Assembly (NCBI GenBank): GCA_035084275.1
Contig: CM068748.1
Coordinates: 806,001 to 870,000 of the forward strand
Origin: Hydrolagus colliei
Taxonomy: Eukaryota
Reading direction: 5' to 3'
DNA length: 64,000 nucleotides
Of the stretch, positions 5,717 to 35,236 are shown one piece after another. Within the stretch, counting starts at the first letter, position 1. Each line of letters starts with the position of its first letter. A model generated the notes under the pieces. It saw only the letters and a list, made by a program, of their open reading frames with translations, did not search any database and was not told where the DNA came from. A program made the translations under genes and the position numbers.

Positions 5717-6035
5717 AATTCTTGCATTTGATATAGCACTTTTCACATCTTATCGACCTCTCAAAGCCATTCACAGAATATACTGTAAAGTGAATCGACT
5801 GTATATTTGTGGGTGAAACGCGGCAGCCAGTTACGCACGGCAGCGTCCCCCACAAACGGTCGTGGGTTGAGATGACCAATTTTATAATTGTGTTTTTTGG
5901 GGGGGACGGATTATTATTAGGCGCGTGTGTGGAGCAAGGAAACTTGCCCAAGGTATCGATCTGACCTGGCTGGATTTGAAACGCAGGTCTCACGCTTGCA
6001 AGGCGAGCGCTCTAACCACTGAGCTACAGGACTCC
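5717..6035 (-). mobile_element. Full-length young tRNA-derived SINE
   Basis: The minus-strand head ggagtcctgtagctcagtggttagagcgctcgccttgcaagcg is followed by a complete body and tail. Confidence 0.92.
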
Positions 6036-8289: not shown

Positions 8290-8482
8290 ATAATCCCTGC
8301 ATTTGATGACCAATTTATTATTGTTGTTTTAGAGGGAATGCTGTCAGGTGTGTGTGTGTGTATGTGGAGTAAAGAAACTTGCCCAAGGTTTTGGAATTGC
8401 CCTGTTTGGAATTGAACCCAGGTCTCTCTCTCTCTCTCTCGCTTGCAAGGCGAGTGCTCTAACCACTGAGCTACAAGGCTCC
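8290..8482 (-). mobile_element. Internally deleted young SINE (head fused to the extreme tail)
   Basis: taatccctgcatttgat is joined directly to gaccaatttattattg. The tRNA-like head is present at 8405-8482. Confidence 0.8.
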
Positions 8483-9570: not shown

Positions 9571-9909
9571 ACCTCGAATGGAGTTGGAATTTTATCACGC
9601 ACCGAAGAATATATACTTGATGTCCTACTCGATTGGGTTACAAGGATATCCTACATTTGAGTTTACGCTGGATCAATTTTATTTGATTGATTTTCCTGGT
9701 GGGTGACTGAATCCTTTTTCAAATGGCATTCGTGATAAAAGACCCACGTGGAATTAAATTACGAATGGAAAAAAGGGGACTCCATCTCAGATACATCGGC
9801 ACGCATGTGTGGGGGAAGGGGTGAGATCACAGCAGATCTTGAAGCAGTAAAATGATCTTGAATGTGTTGGAGAACACACAAACAAACAATCAAAATTACA
9901 CGGAGCAGG

Positions 9910-10040
9910 CCAGAGGTCGCAGAGGTAGGGTGGGACAAGGCGTGGAGGGCTTTGAATATGAGGACCAGGATCTCGAATTGAATCCTCTGGGTGATGGGGA
10001 GCCAATAGAGTCGGGCGAGAATGGGGGAGATGGGGTAACG
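9910..10040 (-). mobile_element. L2 LINE ORF2 C-terminal fragment (degenerate)
   Basis: The translation ISPILARLYWLPITQRIQFEILVLIFKALHAL matches the L2 ORF2 motif ITPxLxxLHWLPxxxRIxFKxLxLxFKALH. Confidence 0.85.
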
Positions 10041-10206
10041 GAGCAATTTTTTTTCTTGTGGAGAAGCCAAGATTAGGAACAAGTAGGAAATTGACTTCTC
10101 ACTGAAGAAAATAATTTAAAAATAGCCTTGTGAAATACTGCTATTAAAGGAGATGGCATTGAAATTGTATTCAAAAGGTTTCCTTCCACCTTAATACTAC
10201 CACTAT

Positions 10207-14309: not shown

Positions 14310-14640
14310 GGATCTCCTGTAGCTCAGTGGTTAGAGCGTTCGCCTTACAAGCGTGAAACCTGTGTTCAAATCCAGGCAGATCAGGGCAAAACCTTAGGCA
14401 AGTTTCCTTACTCCACATCACACACCTAATAATAATCCGTCCAAAAAAAACCACAATGATAAAAATTGGTCATTTTCAATCCACAACAGTTTGTGGGGGA
14501 CGCTGCTGTGCGCAATTGGCTGCCGCGTTTTGCCCACAATTATACAGTCAACTCGATTTACAGTATACACTGAGAAGCGCTTTGAGACATCTAGAAGATG
14601 TGAAAAGCGCTATATCACATGCAAGGATTATTATTTATTA
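14310..14640 (+). mobile_element. Full-length young tRNA-derived SINE
   Basis: Box A tagctcagtgg at 14320-14330, box B gttcaaatcc, body, tail and (ATT)n. Confidence 0.93.
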
Positions 14641-16039: not shown

Positions 16040-16361
16040 GGAGCTCCTGTAGCTCAGTGGTTAGAGCGCTCGCCTTACAAGCGTGAGACCTGTTTTCGAA
16101 CCCAGGCAGATCAGGGCAAAACTTTGGGCAAGTTTCCTTGCTCCACAAACACGCCTAATAATAATCCCTCCAGAAAAGAATTTAAAAATTGTCATTTCAA
16201 TCCACGACGGATTGTGGGGACACTGCCGTGCGCAACTGGCTGCTGCGTTTCGCCCACAAATATACAGTCAATTCACTTCACAGTATATTCCGTGAAGAGC
16301 TTTGAGATGTCGATAAGACGTGAAGAGCGCTATATCAAATGCAAGGATTATTTTTTATTAT
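16040..16361 (+). mobile_element. Full-length young tRNA-derived SINE
   Basis: ggagctcctgtagctcagtggttagagcgctcgccttacaagcgtgagacc...gcgctatatcaaatgcaaggattatt. Confidence 0.93.
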
Positions 16362-26409: not shown

Positions 26410-26708
26410 CAATAATAATCCTCGCATTTGACATTGCGCCACATCACATCTTCGAGACATCTCACAGCGCTTCACAGAAGCGCGGCAGCCAACTGGATTG
26501 AAGTGACCAAATTCTTCTTATTGTTATTATTTTGAAGGAATTACTAATGCTGTAAAAGCTCCAATCTGCCAATCGACTAACAACGGGTTCCTACTTACAG
26601 CGGCTTGTGGAGTAAGGAAACCCGCTCAAGGTTTCGCCCTGACTGGGAATTGAACCCAGGTCTCGCGCTTATGAGGCATGTGCTCTAAGCACTGAGCAAC
26701 AGGACTCC
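26410..26708 (-). mobile_element. Older SINE subfamily copy with a tRNA-like head and internal deletions
   Basis: Tail at 26410-26480, the gggttcctacttac segment, and head gggaattgaacccagg...actgagcaacaggactcc. Confidence 0.82.
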
Positions 26709-26943: not shown

Positions 26944-26995
26944 TGTCCTCCCGACGTGAAAGGCGCTATAGAAATGTAATGTTGTTGTAGTTGTT
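26944..26995 (+). mobile_element. L2 3'-terminal fragment
   Basis: tgtcctcccgacgtgaaaggcgctatagaaatgtaatgttgttg. Confidence 0.72.
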
Positions 26996-28042
26996 ACTTT
27001 GCTTGGCAATCTCGAACTCAGGTTTCCCCAACCCCAAAAGTCTCGATCAGTTCTTTCTTTCTCTCTCCTGTTTGTTTCTCTGTATGAATGTCACTTATTC
27101 TCCTTTTCTTTCCACTCCCAATAATTTTTCTCCTGATCCTGGCCTCGCTACATTTCTCTCTTGTTTATCTCGCCACAGGATCCTCCTCTGAAGCATCTTG
27201 CTCACGCTGGCGCCATTGTTGAGTAAAAATGCTGCAGAACCACTCCGAGTGATTTCGTGAATTAGCTCATTTTTATCTTCCTCGCACAACAATAAATAAA
27301 TGGAGCGCACATTAAATGCTGTTCATGCTAATTACTGCCGTAAATACTTTTAAATAGTTCAAACTGATAATCTATAATTACTTGGACAGACGGTTTCCCT
27401 AACGTAAAACACTCCATAACATCGGACTATGTAATCCATAAAGTCCAGATGTGTAGTCCAAAATCAGTCAGTAATTTATTCCTGCATTTAACTAGCAGCA
27501 CTGCTTATCGCGTCAAAAATATGTTATTCTAACAGGCAGCATAAAGGTTTCTTCCGTGGAAAGAATTCAACCGCGGAATTAAAAGAATACATTTCCGCAA
27601 TGTAAACAGCGGTAATTTGTGTGTTTTTTTGGGCGGAAAGATTAGTTCCTAAAGAACCATGTCATTCAAACTTTGCAATACATATTTTAGATGGGGAAAA
27701 ATAGTGTGAATTTCCTTTTTTTGCAAATGCTGTTTATGTGTAAGCTTTCATTTCAGTGTGGTTAACTTTACCAAATGTCAAGAGAGTAATTATATTCTGA
27801 CTGAGTGTTATTCAGTCTCTTTTAAAAAATATATTTTTAAACCTCAAGAATTGTTTCAGCAGATGTCATGCTTTCAAGTTTAAGGAGATGAGCACAAATA
27901 AACTCCCAATCGCCTCTCCAATGTGTAAACCACATCTATAGCTGCTGTCTTTTTCCCTCCTTTGAAGTGCACCAAAAATGTCATGTGTCGTGAATACCAC
28001 TGTGCATAAGCCAGACAATTTGCTCACTCTCAAAATCCTTAC

Positions 28043-28127
28043 CAGTTTCAACAGTTATTTGGTATCCAGCCTCTAGTCTCCGCGATGACCTTTCCAAGCG
28101 TTCCGTATTATCCAGCAGCAAAGCTCT
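28043..28127 (-). CDS. VTI1A: VTI1A internal coding exon (orthologous to human exon 5), 85 nt, phase 0/1: RALLLDNTERLERSSRRLEAGYQITVET-(G); start of the Qb-SNARE motif
   Basis: The minus strand reads aattttgtttcag|AGAGCT...GAAACTG|gtaagg. The translation matches human RAHLLDNTERLERSSRRLEAGYQIAVET. Confidence 0.97.
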
Positions 28128-30765
28128 CTGAAACAAAATTGACGATGATTATTACACACAATACTTAAGTGCTAGATTATAATTGCACATAATTTAATAT
28201 GGAAGGAACCGTACACAAGAAAAATAGCATAAAAGCCACATTTTTAAGTTGGAATATTCACTTGTGTCATTTTTGTTTTGCAAAATAGAGCTAGGTTGAG
28301 CTCACAGAATAACTAAAACCTACTTTTTTGTACTAATTTCTTCACAAATGACTAATTGTCTGATTGGAATGACAAGCAGTTTCCAGGTTAGGTTCAGTAA
28401 ATTGAGAGAGATTCTATGGATGTGGTAGCACTGAGCATGTATCATTTAAAGCATTTTTTTCTCTCACACAATATTTCGAGCAAGACACAAAAATTCTAAA
28501 GGGTGAACTCAGGAAGCAATGTTGATGGTTTCAAGGCTCACGTAAATGAAAACCGTGCCTCTCTATTGCATCGAGACTCTTGTGAATTGAGTCGGAATAA
28601 ACCAGTAAACAGAAGTAATTCCCATTCAGTGCCAGTTTTCTGAAAATGTTGCCAGTCTGAATTCATTACTCTTTCTGTGTTCAACTGAATGGAATCGGAC
28701 TCTTTCAGCAATTACGAAGAACCACCTTGAATGTTTACATACAAATTGGTTTACTTGGTATCCTGTAACTCCTATCTGAACTCTATTTTGTACTGTACCA
28801 TATTTACAAGGTTTGAACCATTTGGAAATATTTAATGATTACATTTGCCGAAAATAATATACTGTATTGGCAAAGTAATCAGTTTTACTGACTGCAAAAC
28901 CAATCTAGTTTTCAGAAATAAAAGCTACTTGCAATATCCTTCTATATAGGAAACAAACTATAATAGACAATAGACACACTCATTATGACAAAATTAACAC
29001 GGCATTTAGATTGATTAAATTATATTGATTATTAGAAATAAATTGCATAGTGTGAGAACAATCATACTTGGTCTTGATCTTTAATAGTTTTTGCTTGTAA
29101 TTTTCTAAAGTGTCTTATTATGGCAATGCTGTAGAATTTCGCTCGGGATTTTATGCTCATTACAGGAAAAATATGGAGTGCTTTGTGAATGCTAGGAGTC
29201 TTATTTAAACTGATGTTCTGTGGAATAATTAGGCTCCAATACTGTGCCACACAAGTTGAAATAAATAGCTGTATAATAAGATAAGCAGAATTTTAGATAG
29301 GCACAGCTACACCACAATTATCATATCTTATATACAAAACATCTGTACGATTTTATTGTCATTGTTACTGTCATCATTAAGATACATGGCCTTTTTAAGG
29401 CCATTCTGGGAATGGAGAAGCTTTTAATCAGTGGATATTTTCCTTGACTTTAGAGCATCATGTTGGCGTTTGAATATTGAAATAGATGCTTATTTTCTCC
29501 AGAAAAAACATCAAACACAGCTTATAATGTGTATTTTAGTTAATGCTTTTCAAACTAAATCTATAAATTACAACAGTTTGAGTGGATCACTTTAAAAATA
29601 CGCAGACCGATATATACACATTTAAATAAACAAATGTATTGAAGTGGATCAATTCAGGAGGTTTTTTTTTAAGCATTCAAATAAAGCTTGTTTTTGTTCT
29701 TTTCAGACCTTTCTAACTCAATCACAGTGGAATGAAACTTCTGGCTTGTGTTAATCTTAAATGTTTTAATTTTAATAATTAGAAAGAAAGAAAGGTTTTT
29801 GAAAAGGCTTCTATAGCACAAAAAGAAAAGGGAAAAACAAAGATTTTCACGTAAAGGACAGGATCTCACTTGCGATGTTGTTTCCTACCACTTTACGCCC
29901 ATCAACTCTTTTCTTTAGAGAATTTTAATCCTACTTTCTTTCAGGGGGGAAAAAAAAAGACTAGACCCTGGTTTGTCATCCCAGTTCTATTCATGCTGTC
30001 AAAAGGCATACGAACTAATCACATGGAAAAAACGAGAGGGGCTACCACATTTCAAGACCATTTTTGAGTTTGACAGTCAGAAAGCTTCACCAAGAACTTT
30101 CCTCGCTGACAGATGTCACTTAAAATTGGAGAAATACTTTCTAATAAAAATGGTGCCATATGAACAATCTGAATCATGTCCATAGAAGTGAGTTGCCTTG
30201 CTCTAATGAGCCCCTATGGATCTCCCTGATGCAGCTGTATTGACATGCTCACTTAAGCTAATACACCTAGACCAAGATGCCTTGGTGCCTTGAGCACTGA
30301 CAGTCTGGGATACTGACAGTGTATCTTGCTTCAATCTTCAAAGGAGAAGTGATTAGAATGTTATCATTACCATTCGAAACGTGATTTTCCTATTCCCTCT
30401 TGGCAGAGGTGACATATCTGTGAGATGTGGCCAGCAGATCGCAGCAGCTAAAGCCACTTCAAAGCTTCCCTTGAAATTTTTTTCGAAATCATTAGAACAA
30501 TGTGTTCAGATCAACGCAGATAGGACCTGATGTGAAGGTCAGACACATTGCAATAACAATCTATACTAATTAATCTACCTCTTCAAATATGGAGTACGCT
30601 TGTTTGGGATAAATTATACTGATTACATTACATAACACAAAAACAATTTTAGAAAAAAACAGCAAGGTTTCCAACATGGTTCTCAAAAAAATTAACAGTT
30701 GACAGAAAACAACGATATTTCCCAAGCACACACAGATACCTAACAACAAACAAGAATGCACTCAC

Positions 30766-30786
30766 CTCTTCACGCAATTTTATCAA
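30766..30786 (-). CDS. VTI1A: VTI1A 21-nt alternative microexon LIKLREE (vti1a-beta brain/synaptic-vesicle isoform insert)
   Basis: The minus strand reads tttctttcctttttatctttctgtgcgttcacag|TTG ATA AAA TTG CGT GAA GAG|gtgagt. It is frame-preserving, lies between exons 4 and 5, and encodes the same 7-aa peptide as the mammalian vti1a-beta insert. Confidence 0.95.
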
Positions 30787-32897
30787 CTGTGAACGCACAG
30801 AAAGATAAAAAGGAAAGAAATGGCAGGGATGAAACATCTGTCATACAGCAGGGTAGAACATTAACTATGACAATTTATCTGTTTACGTACTTAGTATTAA
30901 GAAATCATAGAAGAGTTCCTTTAAAGAACCTAAAAAGGCTCACGCAAAGAGAATTTTCAGAAGCATATTTTGAAAGAACAAAGATTAGTTCTTCCTTTGT
31001 CAACACAGATGGTTACAATCATTTTTCTCTTGTTTAGTGCACAAGAGCTATGTTTGTCGCATGCTTCAAAGAAAGAGGGGGGCTTTACAGCAAAGATCTT
31101 TTTAAGAGACGTAAAATGTGTACAGTATCATTTCAAATCGTTGAAGTAGAGATGGCATTGTCATCGTCCATTTAACAGCTGCGATTAAAGACAAAGCGAA
31201 GCAGGCGTAACTGTGGGTCCAATATACACATTCAGAACATACACAACACTGACAAGACTGACTGCATTGATTTACGCACAGATGTGGATTTTAATTGATT
31301 ATAAACAAACTTGTGGTAAAAAGGGACACTTTTAAAAAAAAACATTCTGAAACCAACAGTGTGGGGGGAAAAGTGGACCATACAACATGCAACAGAGAGG
31401 TGGAAGGATGCAGAATTCTGAATCTTTTTGAGCTGAAAATTGAAAGCACTGCAGCGGCGAAGGATAAATAAAGTACTTTTACTTCATAGGAGAACGTTAC
31501 AAAATACCTAACAAAAATAACAGAACTGCTGGCACTTACTTAAAAAGGAAAATCTACTTTTCCAATGATACCACTGACAAATGTTTTGAGGTTAGGAAGA
31601 TGGTGCGAGCTTTTTCGGGTCACCACCTCAAATTGACCAGAATACTTAACGGGCCAAAGTGCAAAACTACGCACAAGATGTGACCTATCCTCTCCAGTCA
31701 TATCCATGAGAGGTACTATGAGGCGATGGCCAGTTGTTTTACAATAGAATCTTAACAAAATGTGTTCTATCTTGTTTGTGCTGCCTGGCTGATTTTAAAG
31801 CTTCTCCATGGATTTGAGGGCGGCTTTAGTTTAGTTTATTTTCTGCCACGCTGAGGTACGTATTAATGCGTATTAACGGGGGGGGGGGGGGGAAAGTGCT
31901 ATTCAGATAGATAACAAGAGAATATACTGAAAGTTGCATTTAGTGGGCAATTGGACAATTGCGTTTTGCATTTTCTTCATTATCATCGTCATTAAGGACG
32001 GAGTTCTGCCGTTTCGGGTTATGATAATCGCAGGATTTTCAAACAAAGATTTTCAATATGGGTATTCGATACGAGTGGTAATCTGTTCTTTGTAACCTGA
32101 AAAATCTGGTGCGCGCTGGTTTGAACCAGCAGAATCTCTAGTGGCCAGACTGCTGCTGTGACTGAAATCGAAACTGCGCCGCAGTGTGTGAGATCCACGT
32201 GACACGCAAAACTACAGAATTATGAAAAGCGATAACGCCAATTCCTTCTCTGTCCGCATACAGATAACGAATAAATGCTGAACTCTATTAAATGTCCTTT
32301 ACACATTATCGCTAGGTGAACACGCAATTTTCAGAACTCATAAAGGTTCTCCATTCATTTCGTTATAAATCCTCGCCATGTAACTAACAGATTTGTTGCT
32401 CATAATGATCTGCTCTGCCAGGGCTATATGAGATGATATTGACCTCTTTCAGATCTTTGGGAATTAAATTGACCAGTGCAAACCTCTGTGCTAAAACTGC
32501 AGTTTGGTGTATTCCGTGCACGGTAAGCCCTGTAGCATTATCGCTGGAGCTCACTACTTCACAAGTTTCGGCCGTATTACTTGCATTAACAAAATAAACA
32601 AAAACTTAGAAGCAAAGTTGGACATCTTGCAGATTTTGTCCTAAGCTCGAAATTTGCCAGCCGAATATGAAAAAAGAATCTCCCCGATAGGGTTCTGCCC
32701 GCGGTCTTTGTACAATGATTAAAACCTAAACGGTTTTTAAATCGGAGGTTTTGTTGTTGCTTAGCTTTGCATTAAACAATGTATTTCCACTTGAGTTGCT
32801 GTTAATGCTGTTACTGAGCAGCTTGAGAAGACCTACTAGTGTCTGACCTTCATCACCCTCGAGCCACCCACAAGGGTATGCTGATTAGTGGCCATAC

Positions 32898-32981
32898 CTG
32901 GTTCTCGGAGGTATTCCCATCATCCCCCAGGAGCTCATTTCGAAGGTTTACCTCATCACTGTAGGCGATTCGTGACCTTTT
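32898..32981 (-). CDS. VTI1A: VTI1A internal coding exon (orthologous to human exon 4), 84 nt, phase 0/0: KRSRIAYSDEVNLRNELLGDDGNTSENQ
   Basis: The minus strand reads ttttttttccctttcgtttacag|AAAAGG...AACCAG|gtatgg, a strong polypyrimidine acceptor and GT donor. The translation matches human VTI1A KRSRIAYSDEVRNELLGDDGNSSENQ as recalled, with a 2-aa insertion (NL). Confidence 0.97.
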
Positions 32982-35236
32982 CTGTAAACGAAAGGGAAAA
33001 AAAAAGAGCAAAACTTGTGTTAGAAAGTAGGACTTACAAAATTAGTAGAAGTGTAGTCTTCATACAGCGGCAGAGCCCCCTGATGGATTGCCTCCACCGC
33101 ACAGATCTACTGTGGCAGTTTACTGTTCAGTGGTGAGATTCACGTTTGGACAAGTGCCTCAGTCAGTACAATGGAGGGAAAGGACTTGCCAGCAAAGATA
33201 TTGCTGTCTCTCATTTAACAAAGTTGGCTACAGTCTGCTGATTTTTTCACACAACTTCATAGTTTGAAGGGGGCGCGGGCGGGGGGTCGTGGAGAGAGAT
33301 GAATATTAGACCTCCACATGTCCCAATCTTGTGGTTTTCAAACAGTACGTAGAAGAATTGATTAAGGAAAGCAGTTTGTTTGTTTTCCTTTCCTGAAACC
33401 TTCCCAAAGTATGAACATTTAAAATACCTCAAGTTAAAAAAAAATGGGCTACGGAAATTATTAACTTTTGTAGAACTTTAAATGTTAACAAAACTATCAT
33501 CATGTAATCAACTAAATCAACTCGAGTATTTGTGTAAAGTTTCATTTTGTTCCACAATTGTATATGAAATTCATTTTACAATGATTTCAACAAGGCTCTA
33601 CTCGTTCAAAATACTGCATAAAATGTTTGATCCGATTAACTATTGTGGTGATTTAAGTTCTAATGTCTCACCGCAAGTAAAATCTATTCAAAAAATATAT
33701 TGCAGTCAAGTTCTTGTTGCATGCACAATGCATTTGCAGTGTACTACGGTCAACAATCCTCCGCACGCTGCACAAGTTATTTTTCCAAAGAATTTTAATG
33801 AAACAGCTTATCAAATATAATGTGTGGAAATTGACCGGTTCTACGTTTTAATTACAGTATATTATCCCGAGATATGTTTTGAAGGAACCAACACCCTCTT
33901 CTAAATTGAAAAGCAAAATTGGCAAAGGTCAAAACGCTGATCAATGAAAAATAAATCATACTATACACCAGAACAGTTTTCATACTCTAAAGCAAATAAT
34001 CTTCAGTCATTATAAGGCCCAAGACCACTATGAAAACCCATTAGTAAACATTTCAGATTTCCACTGCTTGCTAAGTTAGTTGATTATTGCGCAAGTCCAA
34101 GTCAGAAGTTTGTGGGATAAATACTTGTTTCGATCCAGAACTTTGTGGTGTCCTACATTCCCATATTTACAGTATTGTCATAATTGGTAACCATGACAAT
34201 CACAAATAGTGTTTGGTCTCTTGTGAAATTGGACACAATGAATAAAAATATATATTTGTGAATGTTCTGAAAAGGCATAATTAAATCTACATTCATTTGA
34301 ATCAAAATTCAACATACATTTCTAATATAAATAGAACAATTGACAATGCACCGAAGAGGTTACAAAATGGGTAACAGGGTAATATTGACGACGAACTGGC
34401 AACTTAATTACGCATTGGAATAAAGTGGATATTGAACTCTTCCATTGTCTTTCTGGGTTTATAAATCACAGGCTGCAAATAAAAACATCAAGCTTTTGGG
34501 GGCCTTTCTCACAGCGACTATTAATAGCAAAGCACTCTTTAATACTTCCCTTGATATCATGTGAGGAAAGCAAGGAAGGAAGTGTTGGACTGCAGTGAAA
34601 AGAGAAACAGCAGCCTGTGGTGAGAGCTGAGGCCTGGCAGGGGAGTCTTACAAGAGTTGCAATGTGGGCAGTCTGAAGCACAGTTTGATAGGAGCCACGC
34701 TTAGTTTTTAATTGGGAAATCATTTCTGCTTTTCACCTGCCATTTGTGCCAGTGAGACATTAAATCTTCATAGAGGGAATTGGGATTTTTTTTAAGATAT
34801 AAAAAAAAGAGCTGGGATGGCTTGCTGCCTCTCGTGGCTGCAGCTGTGAAACTCTTCTGAGCTTGAAGTGGCAGCTTGACCATACAGATGCCAATAGGTA
34901 AGAGTAACGACAGTGAGACAGGGTAGCAGATTTATCACAAACGTCCCCAGAAGAGGTGCAAGTCACATTTTTTTTCTATTTTTACAGGTTTTTAAATAAA
35001 GAATATCACGTATCTGCAGGAAAGAGAGAGAAGCAAGACTTGAGCTAAATTGGAAATGACTTTTTTTTAACGTAGCAGAATGTTCCACATTAGTTCCATT
35101 CATAATGTGGACAAACATGCCTCAGTCACGTAAAATATACAAACATTTCCACCTGCGGAGATAGGGAAGGGGGGGAAATCAATGCTTACATCAACCCTTG
35201 ATTGTACAAGCTTAAAATTCTGCTTAAATTTATATT

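Follow-up and report, generated by a model that had tools for sequence, protein, structure and literature searches.

The window, a stretch of 64,000 nucleotides from Hydrolagus colliei (assembly GCA_035084275.1, contig CM068748.1, positions 806,001 to 870,000), carries on its minus strand exons 4 and 5 of VTI1A and, between them, a 21-nt microexon in phase 0/0, with introns of 2111 and 2638 nt on its two sides (Table 1). Read on the minus strand from 30786 to 30766, the microexon is TTGATAAAATTGCGTGAAGAG, which translates to LIKLREE, and this peptide pattern has a single match across the six frames of the window. Directly 5' of the microexon stands ...ccctgccatttctttcctttttatctttctgtgcgttcacag, and directly 3' of it GTGAGT. 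Exon 4 ends in phase 0 and exon 5 starts in phase 0, so the reading frame is kept both when the microexon is included and when it is skipped. The microexon donor matches CAG/GTAAGT at 7 of 9 positions, and the donors of exons 4 and 5 score the same. The VTI1A microexon in this window is real and correctly identified, which confirms an earlier note on this DNA as to the frame-preserving 21-nt LIKLREE exon, its GTGAGT donor and, from the match of the flanking exons to chondrichthyan VTI1A proteins, the identity of the gene.

Table 1. Coordinates of VTI1A features in the Hydrolagus colliei window (bracketed negative positions count upstream from the microexon).
Feature	Position	Strand	Basis
VTI1A exon 4, 84 nt, phase 0/0, two extra codons (V-N-L-R) as in cartilaginous fishes	32898..32981	-	splice-site scan, motif search, tblastn
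Candidate branch-point word TTCAT (-47), predicted	30829..30833	-	yUnAy pattern scan
Distal UGC (-39), 5' edge of pyrimidine tract	30823..30825	-	sequence
Polypyrimidine tract, set back from AG, 88% pyrimidine, UCUU/UUCU words	30801..30826	-	composition
Proximal UGC (-11 to -9), candidate SRRM3/4-associated enhancer	30795..30797	-	function inferred from orthologues
CAG 3' splice site	30787..30789	-	sequence
Microexon, 21 nt, encoding LIKLREE (vti1a-beta insert)	30766..30786	-	sequence, orthologue comparison
GTGAGT 5' splice site (GAG/GTGAGT)	30760..30765	-	sequence
VTI1A exon 5, 85 nt, phase 0/1, start of Qb-SNARE helix	28043..28127	-	splice-site scan, motif search, tblastn

The 28 residues encoded by exon 4 are identical to those of C. 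milii, Heterodontus, Cetorhinus and Carcharodon proteins, and 28 of 29 aligned residues of exon 5 are identical to C. milii P0010. The best 32 matches to exon 4 comprise 27 named proteins, all of them chondrichthyan VTI1A, and five Logan proteins; among the 120 matches listed, every named one is VTI1A or a VTI1A-type record. Pfam domains PF05008 and PF12352 are found on full-length relatives. With 10 of the 120 proteins as queries, tblastn gave no convincing match in the window to VTI1A exons 1–3 or 6–8, and these exons lie outside it.

The two extra residues of exon 4 are present in all 32 chondrichthyan-type proteins (VNL in 30, VNP in 2); in 205 other proteins V stands alone, and the pattern did not fit 106 of the 343 proteins examined. 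The longer spacing also occurs in the lamprey protein P0149 and in several distant proteins, so the two codons were likely lost in bony vertebrates and could serve as a small lineage marker. In exon 5, the window codes for Ser138 and Ile147 (numbered as in P0003 of C. milii), a pair present in 5 of the 32 proteins, all from C. milii, against Thr and Leu in the remaining 27. Residue 126 is Leu in the window, whereas C. milii has Phe. The exon 4 matches mark the host as a chondrichthyan, and these three residues of exon 5 make it likely a holocephalan other than C. milii. A donor-like GAG/GTAAAC (6 of 9 consensus positions) lies within exon 4 at 32946–32954 of the minus strand, where the V-N-L stretch begins; splicing at this site would shorten the exon to 30 nt, a form for which no supporting protein was found. 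The C. milii model P0001, which ends soon after exon 5, has an unusual C-terminus that is matched at 61% by positions 27257–27310 of the minus strand, downstream of exon 5; this stretch is likely conserved sequence of an intron, underlying a doubtful model of a terminal exon.

All three exons fall within the longest stretch of the window that is free of window-internal repeats (26993–35230, 8.2 kb), which may reflect constraint on splicing or enhancers. Elsewhere in the window, a short reading frame at about 9900–10100 of the minus strand, which resembles the terminal part of a LINE reverse transcriptase, is probably a decayed retroposon fragment. Five tRNA-like Rfam matches (5961–6033, 8397–8480, 14317–14379, 16043–16108 and 26635–26705), none of them near the microexon, all lie inside sequence that recurs within the window, with up to about 20 self-matches; rather than tRNA genes, they are likely the head portions of a SINE derived from tRNA. 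In human, VTI1A adjoins TCF7L2.

Gene models and age of the microexon

Database gene models include LIKLREE in 6 of the 32 chondrichthyan-type proteins and skip it in the other 26. The carriers are three C. milii UniRef entries (P0001–P0003), isoform X3 of Carcharodon carcharias (P0004), isoform X8 of Narcine bancroftii (P0030) and a Logan protein (P0012). Across the full set of 343 proteins, 72 have LIKLREE exactly, one has a longer insert that ends in LIKLREE and 162 lack the insert; the remainder consists of 2 pattern artefacts and the 106 proteins unmatched by the pattern. No substituted variant of LIKLREE was seen among the 343, and the insert is identical across holocephalan, shark, ray and amniote proteins. 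Many of the skip forms bear the name isoform X2, a hint that X1 isoforms with the insert exist beside them. A Rhincodon model that is itself named isoform X1 (P0031, 219 amino acids) has no insert, which may simply reflect the tissues sequenced.

The VTI1A microexon is already known, being annotated in cartilaginous fishes and belonging to a programme described as conserved from shark to human. The remark in the earlier note that automated annotation often misses exons this short fails for at least three named cartilaginous fishes (the C. milii, Carcharodon and Narcine models). The novelty that the note implied does not survive either, since annotations of cartilaginous fishes already contain the exon and the deep conservation of its class is published. 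A species-specific novelty was likewise considered and rejected, the exon being present in the protein sets of C. milii, Carcharodon and Narcine. Among the open main texts covered, we found none that names the VTI1A microexon in a cartilaginous fish, a weak negative result.

The note's dating of the exon to before the split of cartilaginous and bony vertebrates is upheld by the identical inserts, and protein comparison places its origin at least as far back as the last common ancestor of jawed vertebrates. To look beyond this group, we aligned 58 hand-picked proteins of low or partial identity, chosen from at least 150 cluster representatives, with 9 jawed-vertebrate proteins. The insert columns are empty in 56 of the 58, and the other two (P0177 and P0206) look like aberrant mammal-type models. 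One of the 56 is the Petromyzon marinus protein P0149 (isoform X3), the one member covered of a three-member cluster, and it is the only cyclostome protein among 120 proteins listed. Because each cluster is represented by one isoform and the linker is variable, the absence of the insert outside jawed vertebrates is a weak result. The literature on lamprey microexons, judged by titles and the beginnings of abstracts, yielded nothing on VTI1A.

The window adds one more holocephalan data point to the picture in which cartilaginous and bony fishes separated after neural microexons and the layout of their splice sites had been established. This picture has been published before and chondrichthyan gene models already contain the exon, so no open question is settled by the window.

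Acceptor architecture and regulation

Upstream of the microexon, an AG-free zone extends from -51 to -3 and holds the candidate branch-point word; the preceding AG begins at -53. The long polypyrimidine tract that the earlier note described is there, with a pyrimidine content of 88% between -40 and -15 that drops to 67% between -15 and -3, and a UGC sits in this gap. UGC motifs start at -11, -39 and -64, of which the first alone is near the AG. The note's claim of UGC motifs close to the 3' splice site holds for that one; the UGC within the "ccctgcc" that it quoted lies at the far edge of the tract and was rejected as acceptor-proximal on account of its position, -39. UCUU or UUCU words are found at -33, -32, -19 and -16, strict UCUC (the bipartite enhancer of SRRM3/4-regulated microexons has a UCUC-type element as its upstream part) is absent from the tract, and no RBFOX motif (UGCAUG) occurs within 300 nt on either side of the microexon.

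A UGC at -20 to -5 is present in 38 of 150 pseudo-acceptors (25%), so that the UGC by itself is not above chance and is weak evidence. At the acceptors of exons 4 and 5, the nearest UGC lies at -29 and -60, and the arrangement of tract, UGC and AG is missing from both. The whole layout, with its AG-free zone, its tract and a UGC in the gap, tells more than the UGC alone. A set-back pyrimidine tract with a UGC between branch point and AG is also the arrangement of SRRM3/4 targets as described in bioRxiv 2024.09.17.613571, and the microexon acceptor matches it, although a UGC alone would occur by chance in a quarter of cases; the same preprint states that the UGC is not strictly needed for the SRRM4 response. 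At 21 nt, the exon falls inside the 3–27 nt by which SRRM3/4-regulated neural microexons are defined (PMC10987577).

The 21-nt zebrafish exon DreEX0084665 is listed with a PSI of 78.63 in neural tissue versus 0–13.36 in 12 other tissue groups, with a PSI of 2.71 in beta cells and with a dPSI of -49.71 in srrm3/4 mutants (PMC12626424). The human exon HsaEX0070740 is entered in the same source with a neural dPSI of 76.48 and a dPSI_eMIC_H of 91.54, which we read as the response to an ectopic regulator. The zebrafish exon is scored Yes for both UC repeat and UGC in PMC12626420, where the zebrafish and mouse exon sequences are printed. Its deletion in zebrafish is reported to cause minor changes in social behaviour (PMC12626424) and reduced telencephalic activity (PMC12626420). 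Beyond VTI1A, some microexons are described as conserved from shark to human (PMC10987577, citing Irimia 2014), and minigenes of microexons are described as conserving the SRRM4 response from shark to mammals (bioRxiv 2024.09.17.613571, whose main text does not name VTI1A). Another preprint infers 270 gains of neural splicing in the vertebrate ancestor, with C. milii included in the comparison (bioRxiv 10.64898/2026.09.05.749416, with no VTI1 in its main text).

The orthologues being neural in zebrafish and human and the exon being present in shark gene models, neural splicing is likely in Hydrolagus as well, and by the same analogy we infer dependence on SRRM3/4. A search of sequencing runs listed at least 17, none recorded as RNA; nine contig sets guessed to derive from RNA had shares of 0.06–0.30, which speaks neither for nor against inclusion. 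A pyrimidine tract set back from the AG would make for a weak 3' splice site, and the microexon would be skipped by default; in neurons, SRRM3/4 could act through the UGC that lies between the tract and the AG, promoting early spliceosome assembly and, with it, inclusion. Two statements of the earlier note need to be adjusted in this light. Its use of the UGC as a mark of SRRM4 dependence agrees with the behaviour of the orthologues but is tempered by the pseudo-acceptor count, and its term brain-specific fits the neural inclusion in zebrafish and human but is perhaps too strict, since VTI1A is listed among the genes that host islet microexons in mammals (bioRxiv 2022.04.02.486809, which does not name the exon).

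Three other accounts of the locus deserve consideration. That the 21-mer is an accidental LIKLREE match within an intron has, in our estimation, a probability close to nil. The peptide on its own does score weakly in tblastn against the window (E about 2–3); nonetheless, in the 4.8 kb that separate exon 4 from exon 5, about 1e-5 21-mers coding for LIKLREE would be expected by chance on the right strand, and about 4e-8 if AG and GT are required at the borders. Moreover, the microexon ranks first in upstream pyrimidine content (0.87, the runner-up having 0.73) within a set of 99 minus-strand candidates for pseudo-microexons (YAG, 3–30 nt, then GTAAG or GTGAG), and by eye it shares 20 of 21 bases with the zebrafish exon and 20 of 21 with the mouse exon. 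On the expected counts and this near-identity we rejected the chance reading. A silent relic, conserved in the window species yet no longer spliced in, is very improbable. The insert-free Rhincodon isoform X1 could be taken as a hint of such a state, if it does not merely reflect tissue sampling, whereas the intact splice sites, the unchanged peptide, the same near-identity to zebrafish and mouse and the inclusion models of the related C. milii all speak for an exon in use.

The remaining account accepts a real alternative exon and denies that its regulation is the conserved part: inclusion in cartilaginous fishes would not be restricted to neurons or would involve factors other than SRRM3/4, for example relief from PTBP alone. 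The modest value of the UGC, found in a quarter of pseudo-acceptors and dispensable in some microexons, leaves room for this, as does the listing of VTI1A with mammalian islet microexons set against the low inclusion in zebrafish beta cells, which indicates that tissue range can vary by lineage. We nevertheless regard it as improbable, given that the exon is neural and SRRM3/4-dependent in both zebrafish and human, that the acceptors of exons 4 and 5 are without the layout, and that shark minigenes of other microexons retain the SRRM4 response. In our view, the locus very probably holds the chondrichthyan orthologue of the VTI1A microexon. Most tissues likely skip this exon, neurons likely include it by way of SRRM3/4, and its insert is predicted to make the helix that runs into the Qb-SNARE motif one heptad longer.

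Predicted effect of the insert on the protein

In the protein, the insert follows the N-terminal domain (PF05008, residues 1–91) and precedes the SNARE motif. Matched against the PDB, P0003 aligns with 1VCS over residues 3–95 and with 2NPS over residues 124–196, and the insert falls in the gap between them; a PDB sequence search with exon 4 alone gave 0 matches. AlphaFold2 models of C. milii proteins have a long helix at residues 112–195 with the insert and 112–218 without it, with a pLDDT of 67–68 at residues 111–120 and a low pTM (0.46 and 0.39). Because the helix starts at 112 in both isoforms, the predicted effect of the insert is to lengthen it by two turns. We thus predict, with moderate confidence, that it extends the helix toward the SNARE motif by one heptad.

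The register of the helix can be counted from Asp165, which we take to be layer 0 of the VTI1A SNARE motif. Counted in this way, L162, G155, T148, L141, L134, L127 and Leu120 of the insert fall on one stripe (P0003 numbering), and in the skip form a Ser occupies the place of Leu120. Across 53 aligned proteins, L127, L141, G155 and L162 show no or almost no variation. The insert would join the helix from residue 112 and place Leu120 on the stripe L127-L134-L141-T148-G155-L162, and the mechanism that we prefer is that this in-register heptad extension alters partner binding or sorting. No account of the molecular function of the LIKLREE insert was found in the literature covered, and its importance is described as "largely ignored" in PMC12626420.

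A bolder conjecture can be formulated, which we offer as doubtful: the microexon would be an invention of jawed vertebrates, absent from lampreys and hagfishes, and would have stayed letter-perfect for about 450 million years because the in-register heptad at the front of the SNARE helix, with Leu120 on the L127-L134-L141 stripe, makes a surface, specific to neurons, for zippering or for binding partners, by which Vti1a is routed to synaptic vesicles.

Relation to known neural microexons

Antonin, Riedel and Fischer von Mollard reportedly described Vti1a-beta in 2000 as a brain splice variant enriched on synaptic vesicles. Its insert we take to be LIKLREE, in line with the mouse exon row of PMC12626420. 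Enrichment of Vti1a splice variants on synaptic vesicles is also mentioned in reviews (PMC7398939, PMC9197314).

The closest counterparts are the inclusion isoforms of C. milii, Carcharodon and Narcine, which have the same gene, junction, LIKLREE peptide and longer exon 4 as the window, with skip isoforms annotated alongside. The zebrafish, human and mouse exons (DreEX0084665 and HsaEX0070740 for the first two) likewise have 21 nt, LIKLREE and an upstream UGC with a pyrimidine or UC tract, but the preceding exon in bony vertebrates is two codons shorter than exon 4 of the window. Neural PSI and SRRM3/4 dependence have been measured in zebrafish and human, and deletion phenotypes in zebrafish, whereas for the window exon these properties would follow by orthology. 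Set against the SRRM3/4 (nSR100, eMIC-domain) programme as a whole, the window exon differs in the lack of strict UCUC in its tract and of a nearby RBFOX UGCAUG; it shares with that programme a length of 3–27 nt, preservation of the frame, a set-back tract, a UGC between tract and AG and a host gene in vesicle traffic.
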